From: a virus
Direction: 5' to 3' (one strand)
Length of the DNA: 47,790 bases
IMG/VR virus record: IMGVR_UViG_3300045988_092571
Location: 1-47,790 of that record
Both the position numbers and the translations under genes were made by a program. The notes beneath the pieces are model-generated. The model was not told the origin of the DNA and searched no databases. It was given only the letters and a program-made list of their open reading frames with translations. This document shows positions 13,286-47,020 of this stretch, one piece after another. Positions within the stretch are counted from its first letter, which is position 1. The number at the start of each line of letters is the position of its first letter.

Positions 13286-13480
13286 TTAACTCTTTTTCTT
13301 GTTCAAATCTATATTTTTGTCTATATAATCCTTCTGATATTGAGGAACTCCTGCTAAAGAGTACCTTTTTTCATCATTTTTTGTGTTTTTTGACACAATT
13401 TTTTCAAATTTTTGAAAATTGTCGATGAAATAGACAAATTTTTCATAATTTTTTAAAAGAAATCTTAGTTTTTTCAACAT
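13286..13480 (-). CDS. Hypothetical small protein
   Basis: 64 aa. Overlaps the terminase stop. Lys-rich. Confidence 0.35.
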   Translation of the reverse strand: MLKKLRFLLKNYEKFVYFIDNFQKFEKIVSKNTKNDEKRYSLAGVPQYQKDYIDKNIDLNKKKS

Positions 13481-14874
13481 AATCTATAGCCTCCTGAGTG
13501 TCTTTTTCCTCTTCTTTCTCTAGCTGTTTCTTCCACAGACTCTTGGTACATATCCTTTAGCAAGGTTTTCATTGTACTTTCTCGCTGTTCTTTAGGTTTC
13601 TGGTTCATTGTTTTAAAGAAATCGGCATAACTTGCATAAGAAGTATGCTTCATATTCAAGTAGTCATAAGGAATGTCTTGGCAAATATAACGTAAGCAGT
13701 CCATTAAGTGATTATTCTTATCCAATGGCTTTTCTCCTAAGTTTTTATTCTTGTTTCGTTCCTCTTCTGTTGGATAACGATATTCACAGCCTTCCCATAT
13801 AGTGTTAGTCAAGCTTCTGAAAAACCTTACTTTTCCATTATACATCATATTTTTTACTTTTTGAATACCGTCCTCTAGTGCGTTGTTTGCTAACTTAAAC
13901 ACAATACCATGCTCAATCTGCATTTGTTGTTTATATGTTCTCGGTACAATCTGACTTCGTTTATTGGCAGACGGGTCAACTAATGGAGTATGTAACATTC
14001 CTGGAGCAATATCTTTTGTCATTTCGTAGAAAGCACTTGCTACTTGTGATGCAACTTTATTTTTCTGATAGTATTCTCTAAAAAAGTGAACAATTCCTGT
14101 TTCTGGGTCAATTGCTCCCATTAATATAGCAGCAGGGTCGTTAATTCCAGGGTCATGGGCTAAATAAACTTCCCAATTCTTCGGTATATCGAAGTCATCT
14201 TCTACCATATTTAAAATATTCGGATATACTGCACCTACTGCATACTCAATAATACAGTCAATATACAGTCTTGCTTCTTCTGGTGATAGAGACCTCTCTA
14301 CTGTCTCGACAAATCCAGGTGGTAAGTATGGATTATCTCTACTACTTGACAAAAATGCTTCAATTTCTGGGTTTGGTCTTTTGACACGGTCTTTATACAT
14401 GGCAACTGTATTCTGTATAGATGCACTACCATAAATTTTACTAGCTGTAAAAAGCAAATCTCTCAAATAACCATGAGACGGGTTAGATACTAACAGACCT
14501 ACATAATGAGAAACTCCATTAATGATGCCTGCTTTATTTCTTAGACGTCTAATACACTCTTTATAAATTTTCGGGTCTACACCGGATGCTTCTTCTATAT
14601 AGAATGCAGTAATATCCATAGAACGTATTTTTTCTTCGTCATCACTGGCAAGTCCTAAAATAGTGTGTCCATTTTTTAGAATTATCTCAATATCTTGTTT
14701 TGTATCTGTCCATTTCTCTACAAATTTTCGTGGCAAGTATTCATCAAATATTGGCATTATCGCCTTACTTAACTGCTTTAATGTCTGTGCAAACATTACT
14801 GTCTTTCCGTTCGGTACTGACAGGGCATGGTCTATAATCTCGTTTACTCCTGCACGGGACTTAGCTGAGCCCAT
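13474..14874 (-). CDS. terL: Terminase large subunit, exon 2
   Basis: Begins with the second half of the Walker A motif (MGSAKS). Walker-B-like AFYIEEASG. Nuclease-domain motifs LAHDPGINDPAAIL and DKNNHLMDCLRY. The frame is closed by TAA immediately upstream. Confidence 0.85.
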   Translation of the reverse strand: MGSAKSRAGVNEIIDHALSVPNGKTVMFAQTLKQLSKAIMPIFDEYLPRKFVEKWTDTKQDIEIILKNGHTILGLASDDEEKIRSMDITAFYIEEASGVDPKIYKECIRRLRNKAGIINGVSHYVGLLVSNPSHGYLRDLLFTASKIYGSASIQNTVAMYKDRVKRPNPEIEAFLSSSRDNPYLPPGFVETVERSLSPEEARLYIDCIIEYAVGAVYPNILNMVEDDFDIPKNWEVYLAHDPGINDPAAILMGAIDPETGIVHFFREYYQKNKVASQVASAFYEMTKDIAPGMLHTPLVDPSANKRSQIVPRTYKQQMQIEHGIVFKLANNALEDGIQKVKNMMYNGKVRFFRSLTNTIWEGCEYRYPTEEERNKNKNLGEKPLDKNNHLMDCLRYICQDIPYDYLNMKHTSYASYADFFKTMNQKPKEQRESTMKTLLKDMYQESVEETARERRGKRHSGGYRLC

Positions 14875-15607
14875 CAATTATGTTATCGTAAAGGCTCTTT
14901 ATCCTTTACTTCTGTAGTTTCTTTTCTTTATATCGACTCCATATTTTATCGTGGTTTCCTGCATACTCTAAGAACTCTTTACTAAATGTTCCCATTTTTA
15001 ATGCGTGTTCATAATTCTCACGATTTGTTACCCATTCTAAATTGGTTACTTTGTTGTTAGATTTATCACAATCTATGTGATTGACTTGAGGTAAGTTATT
15101 AGGGTTTGGTAAGAAATACTTAGCAACTAATCGGTGTACTTTGTATTTCTTTCTTCCTATTTCTACATAATAGTAACCTTTGTGGTCTTTTTGTGGTTTT
15201 ATACATCTTTTACTGAATGTACTGTAAAAGTTACCTTTATCAGAAATATAATAGTCTCCTTTTGTTTTAAGTTTACCTGCTTCATTAACAAGTTTCCAAT
15301 TTTCTTCTGAATTCATTTACATCACCTCACGTCCTAATATTACAGGTTATGTGGTGATGTTGTCAATATAAATTGTTATTTCTACAGTTCAGACTATATC
15401 TTCACCTTTCGGTGTCGGGCACTCGTGGACAGTTTATTGTTATCCGAACTCACTGTCTAGTCGTTGGACCCAATCTTAACATTGACACCTTTTCTATAAA
15501 TACCTTATAACGACTAAGATGTCAACGGATGCTAAGACCTTGGCTGCTGATTACCCACTTCTGGGCTTCCCAGCAATTCACCCGATTACGAGGCTATGGG
15601 CTATTTA
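14875..15607 (-). mobile_element. Group I intron (733 nt) carrying an HNH homing-endonuclease ORF, inserted in terL
   Basis: 5' splice site after U of GGAGGU (15608). Intron nt 8-18, CCCAU-A-GCCUC (15600..15590), can pair both with the exon 2 start AUGGG (P10) and with the exon 1 end GAGGU including U.G (P1). Intron ends in G (14875). Ligation is in frame and gives GGMGSAKS. GNRA hairpin CACC-GAAA-GGUG (15414..15403). Locally G+C-richer, helix-rich sequence. Confidence 0.8.
14906..15316 (-). CDS. HNH homing endonuclease (NUMOD4 + HNH_3-type), intron-encoded
   Basis: 136 aa. WKLV...YYISDKGNFYS (NUMOD4-like). HRLVAKYFLPNPNNLPQVNHIDCDKSNNKVTNLEWVTNRENYEH (HNH). RBS GAGGTGAT. Confidence 0.85.
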   Translation of the reverse strand: MNSEENWKLVNEAGKLKTKGDYYISDKGNFYSTFSKRCIKPQKDHKGYYYVEIGRKKYKVHRLVAKYFLPNPNNLPQVNHIDCDKSNNKVTNLEWVTNRENYEHALKMGTFSKEFLEYAGNHDKIWSRYKEKKLQK

Positions 15608-15811
15608 ACCTCCCAACATAATTTTTATCTTGGCACGACTTTTATGAAACTCTAACTGGTGAGGTAGGGGCACGTAGTGTATATATGCTGCTCCACACGC
15701 ATCACAATACCCGTACTGGTGCTTCCCATCTTTCTCGATTGTGATATGTCCACTACCACAGACGGGACACTTAAATATAAGTGTGTTTTCTGTCTCAGCT
15801 TCTTGTATCAC
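15608..15811 (-). CDS. terL: Terminase large subunit, exon 1 (N-terminal Zn-ribbon plus first half of Walker A)
   Basis: CPVCG...CDACG zinc ribbon, then LPHQLEFHKSRAKIKIMLGG, ending at the first two glycines of the P-loop. The in-frame TAA at 15605..15607 belongs to the intron. Confidence 0.8.
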
Positions 15812-16040
15812 TATGTCTCTCCTTAAAGTACGTGTCTCGGCACTCTTTGGAACAGAAATCTAAAAATGTACCGTCTCGCCATGTGTTTATCCACCCGTCA
15901 ATCCTTAGTTCTGCGTTCGCTTCTTTATAATCTGTTGTGCCATATATCTCATACTCTTTCCCACAATTGTCACATTGTGCTGTTACTGTCTCGAAGTCGT
16001 AATCTGAATATTTACTCATTGTCCACCTCCCGTGACACAC
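15795..16040 (-). CDS. Zn-ribbon protein (hypothetical)
   Basis: CDNCG...CSKEC. Likely starts at MSKYSDYD (ATG 16019). Confidence 0.45.
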   Translation of the reverse strand: MCHGRWTMSKYSDYDFETVTAQCDNCGKEYEIYGTTDYKEANAELRIDGWINTWRDGTFLDFCSKECRDTYFKERHSDTRS

Positions 16041-25914: not shown

Positions 25915-26769
25915 ATGGAAAAACAAGCAATGACAGAACAGGCAATGTTATATAAGAAAATCAACAAAATGCGTGTTGATTTAAGTACTGAAATGAGCAA
26001 GTCAGGAGAAAATAATTATTCACATTTTAGTTACTTTCAACTAAAAGACTTTATGCCTAGAGCATTAACACTTTGTGATAAGAATAATGTATTTACGAAG
26101 TTTCAAATGGAGACTAGAAATGCACCACTTATTGAGGAAACAAGGATAGATTATGTCAACGATGAAAACACAGGTGAAATGACATCTAAAACCGAAACAA
26201 CAAAAAACAATATAAAGGAAGCCTTGATGGGTGTCTTATATGTTACTGACTTAGATACAGGCTACACAGAAGTATTTACAAAAGAAGCCAAGGAAGCTAC
26301 TGTATCAGGAGCAAGTGCTATTCAGAATGTTGGAGCAACTTCTACATATATGAAACGTTATATGTATATGGACTTATTTGAAATTAATGAAAATGACATT
26401 GTGGACGGTACAAGTGGAAAACCTGAGGAAGAAAAACAAGTACCAGCAAAGCAATCTAGATTTACAGGAGCTAAACAGTATGCAGTAAAGCCTAAAGAAG
26501 AACTTCCAAAGCCACCTGTTAAGACAGCAACAGAAGTTACAGAGGCACCAGTTACACCTATTCCTGAAGTTGTAGCAGAACCTGTAAATACAAGTGAACT
26601 TATGAAAATTGAAACTAAGTTGGAGATTGCAAATTATGCGAAGTTAAAAGGTTTAGACCAACGTACAACTATTGTAGAAATTGCTAAGAAATTAAATACA
26701 GACGTTCCACAATTAAAAGAAAATCAAAAAGATATTATCAAGCAAATGATTGATGAAATGGCTGGATAG
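25915..26769 (+). CDS. erf: Erf-family single-strand annealing protein
   Basis: KINKMRVDL...GENNYSHFSYFQLKDFMP...STYMKRYMYMDLFEI are typical ERF motifs. Pro/Glu-rich linker tail. Confidence 0.75.
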   Translation: MEKQAMTEQAMLYKKINKMRVDLSTEMSKSGENNYSHFSYFQLKDFMPRALTLCDKNNVFTKFQMETRNAPLIEETRIDYVNDENTGEMTSKTETTKNNIKEALMGVLYVTDLDTGYTEVFTKEAKEATVSGASAIQNVGATSTYMKRYMYMDLFEINENDIVDGTSGKPEEEKQVPAKQSRFTGAKQYAVKPKEELPKPPVKTATEVTEAPVTPIPEVVAEPVNTSELMKIETKLEIANYAKLKGLDQRTTIVEIAKKLNTDVPQLKENQKDIIKQMIDEMAG

Positions 26770-26785
26770 AAAAGAGGAACCCAGA

Positions 26786-27049
26786 ATGAAAGGAATTGAG
26801 ACAGTAAAAAAGTCTATAAATGTAAAAGATGCACCTGCAGGGACTACATTAGATTTTGCAATTTGTGTAAAACAAATTGATAAAGATACACTAAACACAA
26901 GAGTAGAAGGAGCAGCTAACATAGCAGTCATAACAGTTGTTTTACAAGAAGCAATTGTAACATTATTAAGAGATTTTAATGTAGCACCGCTTGAAATGTT
27001 TGAGATTATTTCAAATATTATTGCAGATTATGTAAAAGAGGAGGACTAA
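26786..27049 (+). CDS. Hypothetical protein
   Basis: ATG 26786 (MKGIETV) is preceded by AAGAGGA. The ORF track starts earlier, at 26750. Confidence 0.45.
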   Translation: MKGIETVKKSINVKDAPAGTTLDFAICVKQIDKDTLNTRVEGAANIAVITVVLQEAIVTLLRDFNVAPLEMFEIISNIIADYVKEED

Positions 27050-43068: not shown

Positions 43069-44145
43069 CTACTGATAGTTCTTATAGTAGTCTATCAAAT
43101 ATCCTAAGTTGGTTGCTGCTTGATTGTACAAAACGTTATCTAAGTTATATTGCTCTTGATATGCTGCAATTGTATCCATAGCTGCATCATAAATTTCATT
43201 CATCGTATTTTTGTCATTTCTATTAGTACGTTTTAATTGATTAGCTGCATCATTTACAATACTATTTAAAGCATTAATACCAGCATTTTGAGTAGCTGCT
43301 GCATTAGCTCTTTGTGATGCTAAGCTTGCTGCTAAACTTGCAGCTTGTTGTCTAGCCTCTTCTTGACGAACCCGTTCATTGTATTCTAACTGAGCAATTA
43401 AATTAGCGGTATTTGCATCAATATTTTGAACATTTAGATTATATTCATTTAAAATATCATTTAGTGACTTGTCTGTATCTTCTTGAGCTTCACGAAGTGC
43501 TGTTCTAAGTGCGTCCATAGCTTGTTGATTAGCATTTGCATTTTCACTAACTTCTCTACCTTGAGCAATCAAATTTTGCAATTGTGATAACTGTTGAAGA
43601 CCACTTCCACTAATACCTCGAGAAGCTGCGTCTATCATAGTTGTTCTATCTGCTTGATATCTTGCATCTTCTAAGTCTGCTCTTGTACTAAGATAATCCT
43701 GCCTTTGTTGTTGCTGTTGAAGTGCATTCTGCTCTTGAAAACGTTTAATAGAAGTTAGTAAGTCTTGTCTTTTAGATTGATACGTTTGATTGGCTGTATC
43801 TTTTTGTGCTTGTGCTGCTTGGTTATAAGCATTAATCATAGGTGTTAAATCAATAGGACGTGCAGCAGCTACAGCTTGATTATAAGCTGAACTAGCTCCT
43901 CCTAATTGATTATTTACAAGTGAATTTAAGTCTACACCCGAACCGACGGTCACTAATTTAGATGTATCAAAGCCAGAACTTGTATTTGTATTTGTAGTTG
44001 TAGGTCGTTGATTTCTATCTGCTGTTGGTCTAGGAAGATTATTCGATGCTCCAGGTTGATTTCCAATACTGGTCGATGTTGTAAATACAGGAGTTTTAGA
44101 TTTATTACTACTTCCACCAAAAAGAATATTCCACAAACTTGCCAT
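43069..44145 (-). CDS. Gln/Ala/Asn-rich coiled-coil protein (hypothetical)
   Basis: 358 aa. RBS AAGGAGG. Co-oriented with, and 11 nt upstream of, the 1316-aa gene. Confidence 0.5.
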   Translation of the reverse strand: MASLWNILFGGSSNKSKTPVFTTSTSIGNQPGASNNLPRPTADRNQRPTTTNTNTSSGFDTSKLVTVGSGVDLNSLVNNQLGGASSAYNQAVAAARPIDLTPMINAYNQAAQAQKDTANQTYQSKRQDLLTSIKRFQEQNALQQQQQRQDYLSTRADLEDARYQADRTTMIDAASRGISGSGLQQLSQLQNLIAQGREVSENANANQQAMDALRTALREAQEDTDKSLNDILNEYNLNVQNIDANTANLIAQLEYNERVRQEEARQQAASLAASLASQRANAAATQNAGINALNSIVNDAANQLKRTNRNDKNTMNEIYDAAMDTIAAYQEQYNLDNVLYNQAATNLGYLIDYYKNYQ

Positions 44146-44182
44146 ATTTATACCTCCTTATATAGTATATAAAATCATCTAA

Positions 44183-44211
44183 AGTATATCATAAATGTCT
44201 ATAAATGTAAA
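44183..44211 (-). promoter_or_regulatory. Sigma-A-type promoter for the 358-aa/1316-aa operon
   Basis: Minus strand: TTTACA (44211..44206), 17 nt, TATACT (44188..44183), preceded by TGa. Confidence 0.65.
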
Positions 44212-44304
44212 CAAAAGCACCATGGTTGAACCACAGTGCTAGTTTAGAACCCAGAATGTTCTAATGGAATATGTTGGATTGTAGATGTCAAGTAATGCAC
44301 CTAC
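44209..44304 (-). ncRNA. Candidate small RNA unit 3 (~95 nt), bounded by promoter and terminator
   Basis: Starts ~7 nt after the TATACT at 44316..44311. Internal hairpins GUAAU..AUUAC and UAGAAC..GUUCUA. Terminator stem AGCACUGUGG/CCAUGGUGCU (44240..44216) plus UUUUGUUU. No RBS-preceded ORF. Confidence 0.5.
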
Positions 44305-44310
44305 TATTAC

Positions 44311-44339
44311 AGTATATAATATTAAAAATTTTATGTCAA
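44311..44339 (-). promoter_or_regulatory. Sigma-A-type promoter of sRNA unit 3
   Basis: Minus strand: TTGACA (44339..44334), 17 nt, TATACT (44316..44311). Confidence 0.7.
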
Positions 44340-44512
44340 TAAAATAGCACCTAGAAGGTGCTCTGGAAAAAATAAATAAATAGTGAGAGACTTCATCCAA
44401 AAAACATAAATCTGTACTTGGCTTTGACATAAAAGTTAAAATAATTGGTTTTGAAGTAAAAGTTAACCTGAAAGGTAGTTGTGTGATTACAAAAACTATA
44501 GAAATCTCTCAC
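44338..44512 (-). ncRNA. Candidate structured RNA unit 2 (~175 nt), bounded by promoter and terminator
   Basis: The predicted TSS G (44512) opens a 12-bp helix: GUGAGAGAUUUC (44512..44501) pairs with GAAGUCUCUCAC (44394..44383), with one G.U. Terminator AGCACC-UUCUA-GGUGCU (44362..44346) plus AUUUUAUU. Internal duplicated UUAACUUUUA. Confidence 0.5.
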
Positions 44513-44518
44513 ATATTT

Positions 44519-44547
44519 AATATAACATATATCGAACACTTTTTCAA
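44519..44547 (-). promoter_or_regulatory. Sigma-A-type promoter of RNA unit 2
   Basis: Minus strand: TTGAAA (44547..44542), 17 nt, TATATT (44524..44519), preceded by TGt. Sits in a tandem 11-bp duplication ACTTTTTCAAT x2 (44538..44559). Confidence 0.65.
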
Positions 44548-44556
44548 TACTTTTTC

Positions 44557-44645
44557 AATAAAAAATGACTACGGAGCATTGAGTCATCTTTTATCACCAT
44601 AAAACTGGAAGTGTAAATGAAACACCAATTATAGGAATAACCTAC
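44557..44645 (-). ncRNA. Candidate small RNA unit 1 (~90 nt), bounded by promoter and terminator
   Basis: Starts ~7 nt after the TATACT at 44657..44652. Terminator ATGACT-11 nt-AGTCAT (44587..44565) plus UUUUUAUU. No RBS-preceded ORF. Confidence 0.45.
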
Positions 44646-44651
44646 ATCTAA

Positions 44652-44680
44652 AGTATAGCATAAAACAACTTAAAAATCAA
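44652..44680 (-). promoter_or_regulatory. Sigma-A-type promoter of sRNA unit 1
   Basis: Minus strand: TTGATT (44680..44675), 17 nt, TATACT (44657..44652), preceded by TGc. Begins 4 nt after the tRNA CCA end. Confidence 0.65.
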
Positions 44681-44683
44681 TAT

Positions 44684-44760
44684 TGGAGCACCATACCCGA
44701 ATTGCACGAGTGTCTATTTGATTTGCAGTCAAATCGGCTTCGCTTCTTGCCTAATGGTGC
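44684..44760 (-). tRNA. tRNA-Cys(GCA): tRNA-Cys(GCA)-like gene with encoded CCA and non-canonical D and T loops
   Basis: Minus strand: GCACCAT-TA-GGCAAGAAGCGAAGCC-GA-TTTGA-CTGCAAA-TCAAA-TAGAC-ACTCG-TGCAATT-CGGGT-ATGGTGC-T-CCA. Perfect 7-bp acceptor stem. 5-bp anticodon stem with loop CU-GCA-AA. 5-bp T stem. Discriminator U73 and an A13.A22 mismatch, as known for tRNA-Cys. The D loop lacks GG and the T loop is UGCAAUU instead of UUCRANY. Confidence 0.65.
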
Positions 44761-44787
44761 ATATTTAAGGGAATTACTCCCTTATAA

Positions 44788-45144
44788 TTATTTTACAATC
44801 CAAACATATTCTGCTTCTCTTTCCGTACAATCAAATGTATCATAGATATTACCATATTTTGAGCAAGTTATATGCCCTATCATAGTTATCAATAATACAT
44901 TATCTGGGTATAAACTAGAAATGTAGCCAACTGTTCCTTTTGTATAAGGCAATCTGTCATAACGTCTGTCTAAATAGTCTATAATAAACTCCCTGTCGTC
45001 CATCATAGTACCTTGAGCTTGTGCTATATCACTTAATTTTTCATATACATAATCCCAACTTTTACCAGTTGCACATGAAATAGCCCTTATAGTACAGTCT
45101 GAAATGTTTTTGCCCCTTACATTTGCATTATAATATTTATACAT
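44788..45144 (-). CDS. Hypothetical protein with papain-like Cys/His arrangement (possible cysteine peptidase fold)
   Basis: 118 aa. N-terminal NISDCTIRAIS motif, later MIGHITC and D residues. The family resemblance is from memory only. Confidence 0.35.
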   Translation of the reverse strand: MYKYYNANVRGKNISDCTIRAISCATGKSWDYVYEKLSDIAQAQGTMMDDREFIIDYLDRRYDRLPYTKGTVGYISSLYPDNVLLITMIGHITCSKYGNIYDTFDCTEREAEYVWIVK

Positions 45145-45659
45145 TACATTTGACTCATTTCATGAACAGTACGTTCTAATAGTTTTTCTTCTTCTGGAGT
45201 GGAAGCATTCTCCCTTAGGAACTTAGTATATTCTTTTAGAGACTTAAGCATCAACTTATAGCTTTCCATAGTATCCTGGTCAGCACCATACATTTCTTTT
45301 CCTTCTGAATAGTTACCATAATGATAGCTCATCTCATCAAGCATATCTTCTCCACGATAGCCTCGTCCTGTTCCTGGGACACCACGTCTACCGTATGCGT
45401 CTCCTTCCATGTATCTGCCTCTAGAGTCTCTTCTACGACGACCGTATCTGTCATCTCCATACATATATCTCATATTGTCCTCCTTTTCTTTCCAATACTC
45501 TTCATTTTCAATATCTTTATGAATATCAATCATTTTATACAGAGTTGTAATATCTTCACTTTTTATTCCTTTATCAAGAATGTCTTTCATCATTCTTTCC
45601 ATTTCTTCTTTTAAGCGATGTACTACAGGTTTTTCTTCCTTTTCATTCATACTTATCAC
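45144..45659 (-). CDS. Hypothetical Arg/Gly/Tyr-rich protein
   Basis: 171 aa. Central RYGRRRRDSRGRYMEGDAYGRRGVPGTGRGYRGED low-complexity tract between helical acidic ends. Confidence 0.5.
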   Translation of the reverse strand: MISMNEKEEKPVVHRLKEEMERMMKDILDKGIKSEDITTLYKMIDIHKDIENEEYWKEKEDNMRYMYGDDRYGRRRRDSRGRYMEGDAYGRRGVPGTGRGYRGEDMLDEMSYHYGNYSEGKEMYGADQDTMESYKLMLKSLKEYTKFLRENASTPEEEKLLERTVHEMSQM

Positions 45660-46118
45660 CTACGATTTCTTTGTAATTGAAATGTTTGCGTTTTGAATTA
45701 CTGGAACTTCTGTAACTGTTGTCGTTCCTGGTGTAGTAGCACCTGTTAAAATACTAGGCACTGCTTGTACTGTTAATGTAGTGTTACCATTACAACATAC
45801 ACGAAGTTTCTTGTCGAATGATACATTTACATAGTCCCCTGTTGTTGTGATTTGTGCAATTACTGTCGTTCCAGGTACTAATACACCGTCTTGATAAAGT
45901 CCTAAAGCGACTGCTCCTGCAACTGATGATGTAACATTAGCATTGAATGAAACTTCATATATTCCACCACACAATATTTTGTATAGAGGAGAACCTTCAT
46001 TATGTTGTAACCAATTACAACAATTAGCACTTCTCGTTCTTAAATCGTCAACACTAAATGATACTGGAGCAGAATTGCTAGTTAATGCTGTGATAGGCTC
46101 TAAAACACTTTGTATCAT
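45660..46118 (-). CDS. Hypothetical beta-rich protein with CC pairs (TNF/C1q- or BclA-C-terminal-like pattern)
   Basis: 152 aa. ...GGIYEVSFNANVTSS..GAVALGLYQDGVLVPGT... resembles jelly-roll C1q/BclA-CTD strands. Cys pairs NCC and VCC. Confidence 0.4.
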   Translation of the reverse strand: MIQSVLEPITALTSNSAPVSFSVDDLRTRSANCCNWLQHNEGSPLYKILCGGIYEVSFNANVTSSVAGAVALGLYQDGVLVPGTTVIAQITTTGDYVNVSFDKKLRVCCNGNTTLTVQAVPSILTGATTPGTTTVTEVPVIQNANISITKKS

Positions 46119-46133
46119 ATTATCAATCCTTTC

Positions 46134-46168
46134 TTATAAAAAATAAGAGATAGGGCTTGCCTATCTCT
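46134..46168 (-). terminator. Intrinsic terminator between the 262-aa and 152-aa genes
   Basis: 9-bp stem AGAGATAGG/CCTATCTCT (46146..46154/46160..46168) with a 5-nt loop, followed on the minus strand by TATTTTTTAT, only ~17 nt before the next start codon. Confidence 0.65.
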
Positions 46169-46172
46169 GTTT

Positions 46173-46188
46173 AGGACATATATGTCCT
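46173..46188. repeat. Perfect 16-bp palindrome AGGACATATATGTCCT
   Basis: Self-complementary, immediately upstream (in the minus sense) of the terminator hairpin. Confidence 0.8.
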
Positions 46189-46231
46189 TAGCAAGTCCCT
46201 GTAATTAGGTTAGTCTATTAGACCAATGCTA

Positions 46232-47020
46232 TTAAATTACTGTTCCATTACAACCGCACGTGCTATAGCAACAGTTCGGGTTTGGAACAACGTATGCTGG
46301 GCTTGGGCATGGTTTTAACTGATTAATCAAGTACGTATTTTGTGCTTCTTGACTTGCTCTTAAACGTAGAGCATTGATTTCATTTTGTTGTGCTGCAATT
46401 TGTGCGTTCTTATCTTCAATACGGTTAGCAAGAATTTCATCATGCAATGCACGATAATTTGCGTTCTGATTGTCGATGATGTCTCTAGTGTTGTTACATA
46501 ATGTTTGTTGAATAGCATTTGTATTCATAGCCATATTGTAATTAATTCCGTCGAGACCACGTTGTGTTTGGCAGCAGCAATCAGAAATTTGTTGACGAAT
46601 ATCACAGCAACAATTTGCTAACTGACTAGATAATCCTTGAACCCCTAAACGAGTTTCATAGCCATTTGTAGTGATTGCTTGATTAATACCACTGAAACCT
46701 TGGCATAGTGTCTGTTGCGTTGCTGCAAAACCATTTGTCATAGTGTTGTTTAGTGCAAAAGTGCTATCACAAATACCATTTGAAATCGTATCTAGTTTTC
46801 TATCAACCTGTGCGAAATCACTAGCTAAAACATATCCGTCTGCAACTCCACCAGAGTTTCCGCCGAAGCCACCGCCAAATCCGTTTCTTCCAAATCCAAA
46901 GATTAAGAATAGAATTATAATCCAAGCATAGTCATTACCCCAGCCATTGTTATATCTTCCATTACCAGCATTACCTGACAATACTGCCACATCTGCTGGA
47001 GAAAGAACACCTTCGTTCAT
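46232..47020 (-). CDS. Membrane-anchored Gly-rich, cysteine-cluster protein (hypothetical)
   Basis: 262 aa. TM segment YAWIIILFLIFGF, then GFGGGFGGNSGG. Two CCC triplets (NCCCDIRQQISDCCCQ). C-terminal PCPSP...NCCYSTCGCNG. Gln/Asn-rich coiled coil. Confidence 0.55.
   Translation of the reverse strand: MNEGVLSPADVAVLSGNAGNGRYNNGWGNDYAWIIILFLIFGFGRNGFGGGFGGNSGGVADGYVLASDFAQVDRKLDTISNGICDSTFALNNTMTNGFAATQQTLCQGFSGINQAITTNGYETRLGVQGLSSQLANCCCDIRQQISDCCCQTQRGLDGINYNMAMNTNAIQQTLCNNTRDIIDNQNANYRALHDEILANRIEDKNAQIAAQQNEINALRLRASQEAQNTYLINQLKPCPSPAYVVPNPNCCYSTCGCNGTVI

Follow-up and report, generated by a model that had tools for sequence, protein, structure and literature searches.

Organization of the array

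The window, i.e. the whole stretch of 47,790 nucleotides (nt) analysed here, is a complete-length metagenomic contig of phage origin (ena:ERZ27260745:k119_156290; G+C 32%). Within a minus-strand block of late-type genes, a 118-amino acid (aa) gene is separated from a downstream operon of 358-aa and 1316-aa genes by an AT-rich gap of 642 nt (44146-44787), which contains a gene for a cysteine transfer RNA (tRNA-Cys) followed by three short units, each bounded by its own predicted promoter and terminator (Table 1). The available evidence inclines, if not strongly, to the interpretation that the units are three autonomous small-RNA (sRNA) genes of the phage, forming an accessory array of fast turnover, with units 1 and 3 likely acting in trans.

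An earlier note on this DNA had described four minus-strand promoters, all with 17-nt spacers, and three hairpin plus U-run terminators, together delimiting three units of ~90, 175 and 95 nt that are free of open reading frames (ORFs). A promoter scan finds all four promoters (P1-P4), with the same hexamers and at the same positions, and they are predicted to be of the sigma-70/sigma-A type. The terminators (T1-T3) are likewise present, T2 and T3 being identified by a scan and T1 by sequence and folding; T1 escaped the scan solely because it has fewer than three G-C pairs. With +1 placed 7 nt past each -10 hexamer, the units measure ~90, 173 and 97 nt. Little space is left between modules, since each terminator U-run overlaps the next -35 hexamer. 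P4 leads into the protein operon, as had been proposed, and is present in all relatives, even those lacking units.

The clustering of promoters and terminators in the gap exceeds chance. Sites scoring at least 10/12 with a 17-nt spacer number 17 in the whole window, both strands included; three of these fall in the gap on the coding strand, where ~0.11 would be expected. Terminator-like sites number 11 in 47.8 kb, two of them in the gap (three counting T1). When the promoter threshold is relaxed to 9/12, sites are not enriched (18, vs 14.9±3.7 in shuffles).

There are likenesses among the promoter regions themselves. P1 and P4 are 95% identical over 20 nt that take in the -10 hexamer and the transcription start (44176-44195 compared with 44645-44664), and the -10/+1 block of P3 resembles the stretch just before the Shine-Dalgarno (SD) sequence of gene 358, with GTAGGT replacing GGAGGT (44152-44175 compared with 44299-44322). 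These likenesses suggest that the array may have grown through promoter-region duplication.

The predicted RNAs all begin in structure. Unit 1 opens at +1 with a 5' hairpin (GUAGG-UUAUU-CCUAU), which is followed by two small hairpins and then T1. Transcription reading through from the upstream operon and the tRNA would run straight into unit 1, and because the interval between the tRNA and unit 1 lacks a terminator, its RNA may also arise as a tRNA 3' trailer. Unit 2 has a 12-bp closing helix that starts from +1 and surrounds an interior with a direct repeat, followed by an A/U-rich tail and T2; this helix, pointed out in the earlier note, is made up of 11 Watson-Crick pairs and one G·U pair. 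Unit 3 starts at +1 with a 5' hairpin of 7 bp, continues with a conserved, mainly unpaired 34-nt core and ends in T3.

All three units fold more stably than dinucleotide shuffles, against which the z-scores in Table 1 were computed. Owing to their G·U pairs, the hairpins are favoured by 1.3-4.7 kcal/mol on the minus strand over the opposite strand (for T1, -13.1 kcal/mol vs -8.4; for T3, -14.7 vs -10.3). The hairpins are thus strand-specific, and this points to structure at the level of RNA and not of DNA.

Table 1. Positions of the array elements, the flanking genes and the candidate target in the window, with tRNA-Cys alleles of related genomes (L numbers).
Feature	Position	Strand	Description
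118-aa gene	44788-45144	minus	ends at 44788
tRNA-Cys (GCA)	44684-44760	minus	encoded CCA; ARAGORN; Rfam tRNA 44.7 bits
P1	44652-44680	minus	TTGATT-17-TATACT; 9/12; extended -10 TG
Unit 1, predicted RNA	44556-44645	minus	~90 nt; fold -22.7 kcal/mol, z = -4.3
T1	44565-44587	minus	core stem ATGACT/AGTCAT, then U6; A-U pairs extend to 44558-44595, 15 pairs, -13.1 kcal/mol
P2	44519-44547	minus	TTGAAA-17-TATATT; 10/12; TG; inside 11-nt tandem duplication TTGAAAAAGTA/TTGAAAAAGTG
Unit 2, predicted RNA	44340-44512	minus	~173 nt; fold -36.9 kcal/mol, z = -3.8
Unit 2 closing helix, 5' arm	44501-44512	minus	GUGAGAGAUUUC
Unit 2 direct repeat	44415-44466	minus	two 25-nt copies, 27-nt period
Unit 2 closing helix, 3' arm	44383-44394	minus	GAAGUCUCUCAC
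T2	44346-44362	minus	AGCACCU-UCU-AGGUGCU, then AUUUUAUU; -9.9 kcal/mol; U-run overlaps P3 -35 hexamer
P3	44311-44339	minus	TTGACA-17-TATACT; 11/12
Unit 3, predicted RNA	44208-44304	minus	~97 nt; fold -30.6 kcal/mol, z = -4.2
Unit 3 invariant 24-nt core	44247-44270	minus	AUUCCAUUAGAACAUUCUGGGUUC; same in window clade and L092/L093
T3	44216-44240	minus	11-bp stem including 2 G·U, then UUUUGUUU; -14.7 kcal/mol; U-run overlaps P4 -35 hexamer
P4	44183-44211	minus	TTTACA-17-TATACT; 10/12; TG
358-aa gene	43069-44145	minus	starts at 44145
Operon of 358-aa and 1316-aa genes	44145-39107	minus	downstream of array
Possible target of unit 3	26777-26788	plus	GAACCCAGAAUG; end of SD to AUG of 87-aa gene 26786-27049
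tRNA-Cys allele, L085	3385-3458
tRNA-Cys allele, L094	1778-1851
tRNA-Cys allele, L119

Constraint on the units within the clade

Look-ups with exact proteins recovered the locus from many independent samples, giving 11 distinct gap haplotypes from independent metagenomes. Among them the body of unit 3 with T3 has no variable site in 97 and the body of unit 1 with T1 has two in 90, while third codon positions in the same genomes are 10.9% variable in gene 118 and 25.9% in gene 358; the calculated probability of 0 changes in 97 sites at the lower of these rates is ~1e-5. Pairwise divergence is 0.6-1.6% for the units, 1.7-2.5% for gene 118 (all synonymous) and 1.4-5.8% for gene 358. On these comparisons, constraint on units 1 and 3 exceeds that on the synonymous sites of the neighbouring genes, and both units are evidently under purifying selection. 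Promoter hexamers are invariant among the haplotypes and the spacers vary, that of P2 having five variable positions.

The pattern in unit 2 is different in that its closing helix has one variable site in 24, counting both arms, and its interior 14 in 106. The repeat has been cut to one copy by two independent deletions, one of 28 nt (in the relatives designated L089 and L091) and one of 27 nt that removed the other copy (L119). Unit 2 is thus constrained in its frame only, i.e. the closing helix and terminator. The earlier note had singled out unit 2 as a discrete folded RNA; the helix is borne out, the special status is not, since unit 2 is the least constrained of the three and its interior evolves about neutrally.

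The repeat in unit 2 is relevant to the possibility that the array functions as DNA, as a transcription-activated or primed origin, a packaging signal or a set of protein-binding iterons, with any RNA being incidental. The gap is AT-rich and unit 2 carries the two 25-nt direct repeats and an A/T tract, and the promoters are clustered, as they are at the primary origin of phage T7. However, the repeat is single-copy in three haplotypes and absent from the related genome L092, and the whole array is absent from other relatives, so that the array is not an essential origin or packaging site. Together with the strand-specificity of the hairpins conferred by G·U pairs, the location of the terminase genes ~30 kb away and the turning points of cumulative GC skew, which lie near 17.5 kb and 39 kb rather than at the gap, this makes a DNA-level role highly improbable.

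Distribution among related phages

Beyond the window clade, homologues of the units are found in one lineage (L092/L093), in which the 358-aa homologue has 71% protein and 68% DNA identity, and in which tRNA-Cys is followed by two units. The second of these corresponds to unit 3, its body being 89.7% identical in L092, compared with 68% for the DNA of gene 358, 58.9% for third codon positions and 60.6% for gene 1316. The stem of the 5' hairpin is kept, with changes confined to the loop, and pairing in the T3 stem is preserved by compensatory changes, two of them double and two single-sided. The counterpart of P3 reads TTGACT-17-TATACT, with a spacer that is just 66% identical. The first unit of L092 opens like unit 1, with the same UUAUU loop and a stem lengthened by a paired 2-bp insertion; beyond this 5' hairpin its sequence is unrelated to unit 1. 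The counterparts of P1, TTGCTT-17-TATAAT in L092 and TTGATT-17-TATAAT in the further relative L112, keep the hexamers, TG and 17-nt spacing, with unrelated spacers.

Other relatives have different contents at the same site. In L112, tRNA-Cys and a P1-like promoter precede one ~60-nt unit with a terminator, then P4; in L114 two units are present without a tRNA. Both are unrelated in sequence to the units of the window, yet all the units in L112, L114 and L092 feature a 5' hairpin plus terminator. In three distant relatives (L098, L099, L104) tRNA-Cys stands directly before the 358-aa homologue, and these, with L113, lack units. With zero, one, two or three units per lineage, the array is, as judged from these genomes, an accessory insertion and not part of the conserved core of the phage group. 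An apparent homology of unit 3 to the gap of L098 in a MAFFT alignment was rejected, the L098 stretch being tRNA-Cys.

Wider searches with the region gave little. Among 80 IMG/VR relatives of the 118-aa gene (at most 79% identical), blastn and nhmmer with the gap and units returned promoter and tRNA fragments only, and the downstream gaps of these relatives are mostly occupied by genes or short spacers, with no comparable arrays. A blastn search of INPHARED phages with the region gave no match, exact-core scans of IMG/VR with units 1, 2 and 3 gave 0 matches, a scan of GTDB genomes gave as its sole match the phage itself, binned in a metagenome-assembled genome (MAG), and a scan of JGI metagenomes gave one further close relative plus one chance 20-mer. 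A covariance model of unit 3 run against 64 sources recovered the window and L092, with no further homologues. The earlier suspicion that the units match no known RNA family is upheld, in that an Rfam 15 search of the region (E <= 10) passes the tRNA alone. The best sub-threshold matches there are SpF36 (27.4 of 48 bits; a terminator) and preQ1-II (24 of 47 bits), and a search of the whole window at gathering thresholds gives an unrelated group I intron and nothing at the units.

The neighbouring tRNA-Cys gene has no promoter of its own, and the -35 hexamer of P1 begins 4 nt past its 3' end; it is predicted to be co-transcribed with the upstream operon. Two tRNA-Cys(GCA) alleles, ~35% divergent, occur among genomes that are 98-99% identical around the tRNA, and it looks as if the tRNA has been replaced, cassette-like, at a fixed position.

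It may be, although we consider this quite unlikely, that the whole site between tRNA-Cys and P4 is a hypervariable 'RNA accessory island', in which phages of the group swap small promoter-hairpin-terminator RNA cassettes along with tRNA alleles as tools of counter-defence or host takeover. If so, the RNAs of the island might be, for example, decoys for RNA-guided or RNA-sensing immunity, or sponges for host RNases or chaperones, and the island would be an RNA-only analogue of protein anti-defence islands. As a specific explanation of the present units, RNA decoys or anti-defence RNAs, mimicking or sequestering host RNA-guided or RNA-sensing immunity, an RNase or an RNA chaperone, are very unlikely. 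The hotspot-like behaviour of the site, with unrelated cassettes in related phages and a tRNA-Cys swapped between 35%-divergent alleles in near-identical genomes, would be in keeping with such a role, since the turnover of sequence between lineages would mirror an arms race; the strength of the promoters fits as well, as do the RNAs, which are compact and look stable. However, no likeness to an Rfam family was found, the direct repeats of unit 2 are just 27 nt apart, no host sequence is matched (the one genome match being to the phage itself in a MAG), and the units are invariant within the clade rather than diversifying.

Coding capacity

The claim that the array is free of ORFs holds. The ORFs in the gap are a 63-aa ORF starting with ATG, a 48-aa ORF starting with GTG and a 15-aa ORF starting with TTG only. 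The first two run across terminators and promoters, lack an SD sequence and are disrupted by 1-, 4-, 27- and 28-nt indels among near-identical genomes. The single SD-preceded ORF is that of 15 codons, in unit 3, with AGGUG 6 nt upstream of its TTG start; in L092 it loses both the start and the frame (2-nt and 1-nt indels), with the nucleotides still conserved. Since frame-breaking indels and loss of the start occur alongside nucleotide conservation, the units are not peptide-coding. Conservation of a peptide ORF in homologues had been named in the earlier note as an outcome that would speak against sRNAs; the relatives show frame breaks and no conserved ORF.

The least probable of the explanations considered is that the units are decayed protein-coding morons, tiny peptide genes that escaped annotation, or signals that arose by chance in AT-rich DNA. 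Two relatives (L001, L002) do carry small ORFs after the 118-aa gene, unit 3 contains the 15-codon TTG ORF with its upstream AGGUG, and promoter-like sites at the 9/12 level are not enriched over shuffles. Against this, units 1 and 3 vary far less than the third codon positions of their neighbours, 90% identity is kept in a lineage whose genes are 61-68% identical, and in L092 the nucleotides outlast the TTG start and the reading frame, the other ORFs being broken by indels.

Possible mode of action

The organization and variation of the locus are consistent with the following proposal. RNA units would have been inserted between tRNA-Cys and the promoter of the next operon, and host RNA polymerase of the sigma-70/sigma-A type would read each from its own near-consensus promoter. 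Each RNA would begin directly in a hairpin, which is expected to protect its 5' end; in low-GC bacteria a hairpin at +1 protects against 5'-end-dependent decay. After a short linker, transcription of each unit would stop at its intrinsic terminator, with a U-run overlapping the next -35 hexamer. Units 1 and 3 would be the functional core, most likely as trans-acting RNAs. In unit 3 conservation is highest in a largely unpaired linker and small loop, which is the pattern of a seed or protein-binding segment, and the invariant 24-nt core is a candidate for such a segment. The most probable mode would be riboregulation in which unit 3 base-pairs through its 24-34-nt core, which is invariant and mostly unpaired; alternatively, the RNAs may bind, or titrate, a host or phage factor. 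We infer transcription, 5'-end stabilization, trans action and any target.

A possible target of unit 3 is the translation-initiation region of the 87-aa gene at 26786-27049. Positions 44247-44258 of unit 3 (CAUUCUGGGUUC) are perfectly complementary, over 12 nt, to 26777-26788 on the plus strand, a second helix of 5 bp is conceivable (AUUCC:GGAAU), and in three relatives the target site is either unchanged or differs by a C-to-U change, with which a G·U pair can still form. In the target prediction, which covered 83 phage translation-initiation regions and was compared with dinucleotide shuffles, the duplex energy was no better than that of shuffles (p about 0.28), and targeting of gene 26786 by unit 3 is put forward as a hypothesis only.

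The 87-aa gene, on the plus strand, lies between genes for an ERF-like recombinase and SSB. It is hypervariable, with 74-100% aa identity among genomes otherwise ~97% identical. The annotation has it start at a TTG at 26750, which is probably an error, the ATG at 26786, with SD AGAGGA, fitting better.

Several points weigh against the proposal of autonomous sRNA genes. The promoters and terminators are predictions from the DNA letters. Homologues of the units come from one moderately diverged lineage, L092/L093, and the covariation is that between two sequence types. Unit 2 has an interior that changes about as fast as neutral sequence and in which deletions are tolerated. No significant target emerged among the initiation regions covered, the best duplex energies of units 1-3 being equalled or beaten by 28-100% of shuffles. 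Finally, the units are co-oriented with the downstream operon and always lie just upstream of its promoter, making a cis-regulatory role possible.

The last point leads to the explanation that the array is a cis-acting control region that shields the upstream operon and tRNA from the 358-aa/1316-aa operon or tunes the expression of the latter (the tuning being by attenuation, occlusion or put-like RNA-mediated antitermination), with the RNAs being by-products or cis-acting leaders. All elements point the same way as the operon, terminator U-runs overlap the next -35 hexamer, and the units are found immediately upstream of P4 and gene 358 in every lineage, whether or not a tRNA is present. T1 would double as the terminator of the upstream operon, since unit 1 is in its read-through path, and RNAs from premature termination in 5' untranslated regions (5'UTRs) are common in phages (PMC10914365). 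On the other hand, P4 is strong, universally conserved and located after T3, and it serves the operon alone in L098, L099, L104 and L113; insulation needs one terminator, as in L098; and the strongest constraint falls on the unpaired core of unit 3 and not on the promoter and terminator signals, which would be unexpected for a pure insulator. A cis-acting role is thus regarded as unlikely, albeit far from negligible.

The proposal of autonomous sRNA genes is the best supported and is judged somewhat better than evenly probable. What stands of the sRNA interpretation offered in the earlier note is the anatomy, the non-coding nature, the lack of an Rfam match, the selection, the strand-specific hairpins and the compensatory changes; what does not is the emphasis on unit 2, and the regulatory, decoy and packaging roles raised there are speculative. 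The case that the array contains functional elements is, going by the comparisons made, unusually good for a metagenomic locus.

Genomic setting

The window encodes the large terminase of a tailed phage, apparently interrupted by a group I intron, and its portal, major head and tail proteins, together with a family-A DNA polymerase, a primase-helicase, a helicase, an ERF-like recombinase and SSB. Among isolates, the Paenibacillus podophages API480 and SV21 come nearest, at a portal protein identity of just 26%. The phage would appear to be a virulent podovirus, with an uncultured gut bacterium as its host, rather than a lambdoid prophage. A genome 96% identical to the window (L111; CALUVM010000042.1, 46,296 nt) is binned in a 'Candidatus Gastranaerophilales' (Melainabacteria) MAG; this is the sole hint as to the host, and a weak one, as it may be a binning artefact.

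Two cysteine-rich proteins are encoded at 45660-47020 on the minus strand, just upstream of tRNA-Cys. One, of 262 aa, has CCC/CC clusters and a Gly-rich N-terminal part (phrog_16490), and the other, of 152 aa, has a weak BclA_C-like match. Supply of Cys codons is a possible reason for carrying tRNA-Cys.

In genomes L082-L091, variants of the 171/173-aa and 150-153-aa genes in the 900 nt upstream of the 118-aa gene (~45145-46050 in the window) differ by 4-12% in DNA; in the same genomes the 118-aa gene and the RNA units differ by <2.5%. This disparity indicates mosaic exchange around the array locus.

The group I intron (RF00028, 60.7 bits, E = 4.8e-13) lies at 15373-15653 on the minus strand, adjoining the large-terminase gene. 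The large-terminase ORF (13474-14877) matches phrog_2, and the terminase region upstream of it is split into several short ORFs; the ORFs around the intron are at 15795-16040, 14906-15316 and 13474-14877.

Comparison with known systems

The closest described kind of element is the non-coding RNA (ncRNA) candidate bounded by a promoter and a premature terminator, of which 29 are reported from Pseudomonas phages by ONT-cappable-seq, some being confirmed by Northern blots, with 5'UTR-derived examples in phages YuA, PAK_P3, phiKZ and LUZ19/24 (PMC10914365). The units of the window resemble these in being ~90-200 nt long and ORF-free, in lying upstream of structural or replication genes, in having a predicted transcription start site (TSS) and intrinsic terminator, and in being conserved in close relatives. 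They differ in that each has its own promoter, in that three are stacked head to tail, and in the type of host; moreover, the Pseudomonas phage ncRNAs are known from transcripts, whereas the present units are known from sequence. 5'UTR-derived ncRNAs have a TSS in common with the downstream mRNA. By contrast P4 is located between T3 and the start codon of gene 358, and because the downstream gene thus has a separate promoter past the last terminator, the window RNAs are not simply truncated 5'UTRs.

Trans-acting, base-pairing sRNAs of phages and prophages include lambda PreS, DicF, AgvB/AsxR and the Pas sRNAs. As with these, the units of the window have the predicted features of stand-alone sRNA genes, i.e. 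their own promoter, a Rho-independent terminator and no conserved ORF, and unit 3 has a conserved single-stranded segment between hairpins. Unlike them, the units lack a statistically supported target and any sequence or Rfam relationship, and the phage is not a lambdoid prophage.

The proximity to a tRNA gene also has precedents. The tRNA cluster of phage T4 encodes small stable RNAs (species 1/2, rnaC/rnaD), which are processed from a tRNA precursor, and 3'ETS-leuZ of Escherichia coli is an sRNA derived from a tRNA 3' trailer. In these cases, as in the window, small ncRNAs adjoin tRNA genes, and unit 1 could be a tRNA 3' trailer. However, the T4 RNAs do not have their own promoter-terminator pairs, whereas a separate promoter is present for unit 2, for unit 3 and probably for unit 1.

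Three further types of element were considered and set aside. The packaging RNA (pRNA) of phi29, which is about 174 nt long and is the Rfam family 'Bacteriophage pRNA', is like unit 2 (~173 nt) in being a structured ncRNA of ~170 nt from a podovirus of a low-GC host, but there is no Rfam match at E <= 10, and unit 2 has an unconstrained interior, part of which can be deleted; the large terminase encoded in the window is of the classical kind and is accompanied by a family-A polymerase and a primase-helicase, not by a phi29-type system. A CRISPR mini-array, or a solitary-repeat RNA anti-CRISPR, would be expected to mimic a host CRISPR repeat in sequence and structure, with repeats of 28-37 nt at spacer-length intervals; the sole internal repeat is of 25 nt with a 27-nt period, leaving no spacer-sized gap. 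An origin or iteron array is not compatible with at most two repeat copies, one in three haplotypes, nor with the absence of the region from related phages.

The small RNAs of virulent phages have barely been catalogued beyond a few model systems, and those of phages of uncultured gut bacteria hardly at all. The present locus provides three compact candidates, two of which appear more constrained than the flanking proteins, at a site that gains, loses and replaces cassettes. Metagenomic phages could be mined for RNA genes that lack annotation by a signature that combines a consensus promoter and a hairpin starting from +1 with a terminator that runs into the following -35 hexamer and with diversity below that of synonymous sites. 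Transcription of the units, if it occurs, would make them new riboregulators or RNA decoys of phages.

In overall organization the array is also reminiscent of morons, which, according to Hendrix and colleagues, are reportedly promoter-gene-terminator cassettes inserted between phage genes. Like morons, the units are seemingly autonomous cassettes, with promoter and terminator, that lie between operons, are variably present and turn over in content among related phages. Unlike morons, their cargo would be non-coding RNA and not a protein gene, and they might thus be regarded as 'non-coding morons'; if they are transcribed, it would follow that morons can carry RNA cargo.

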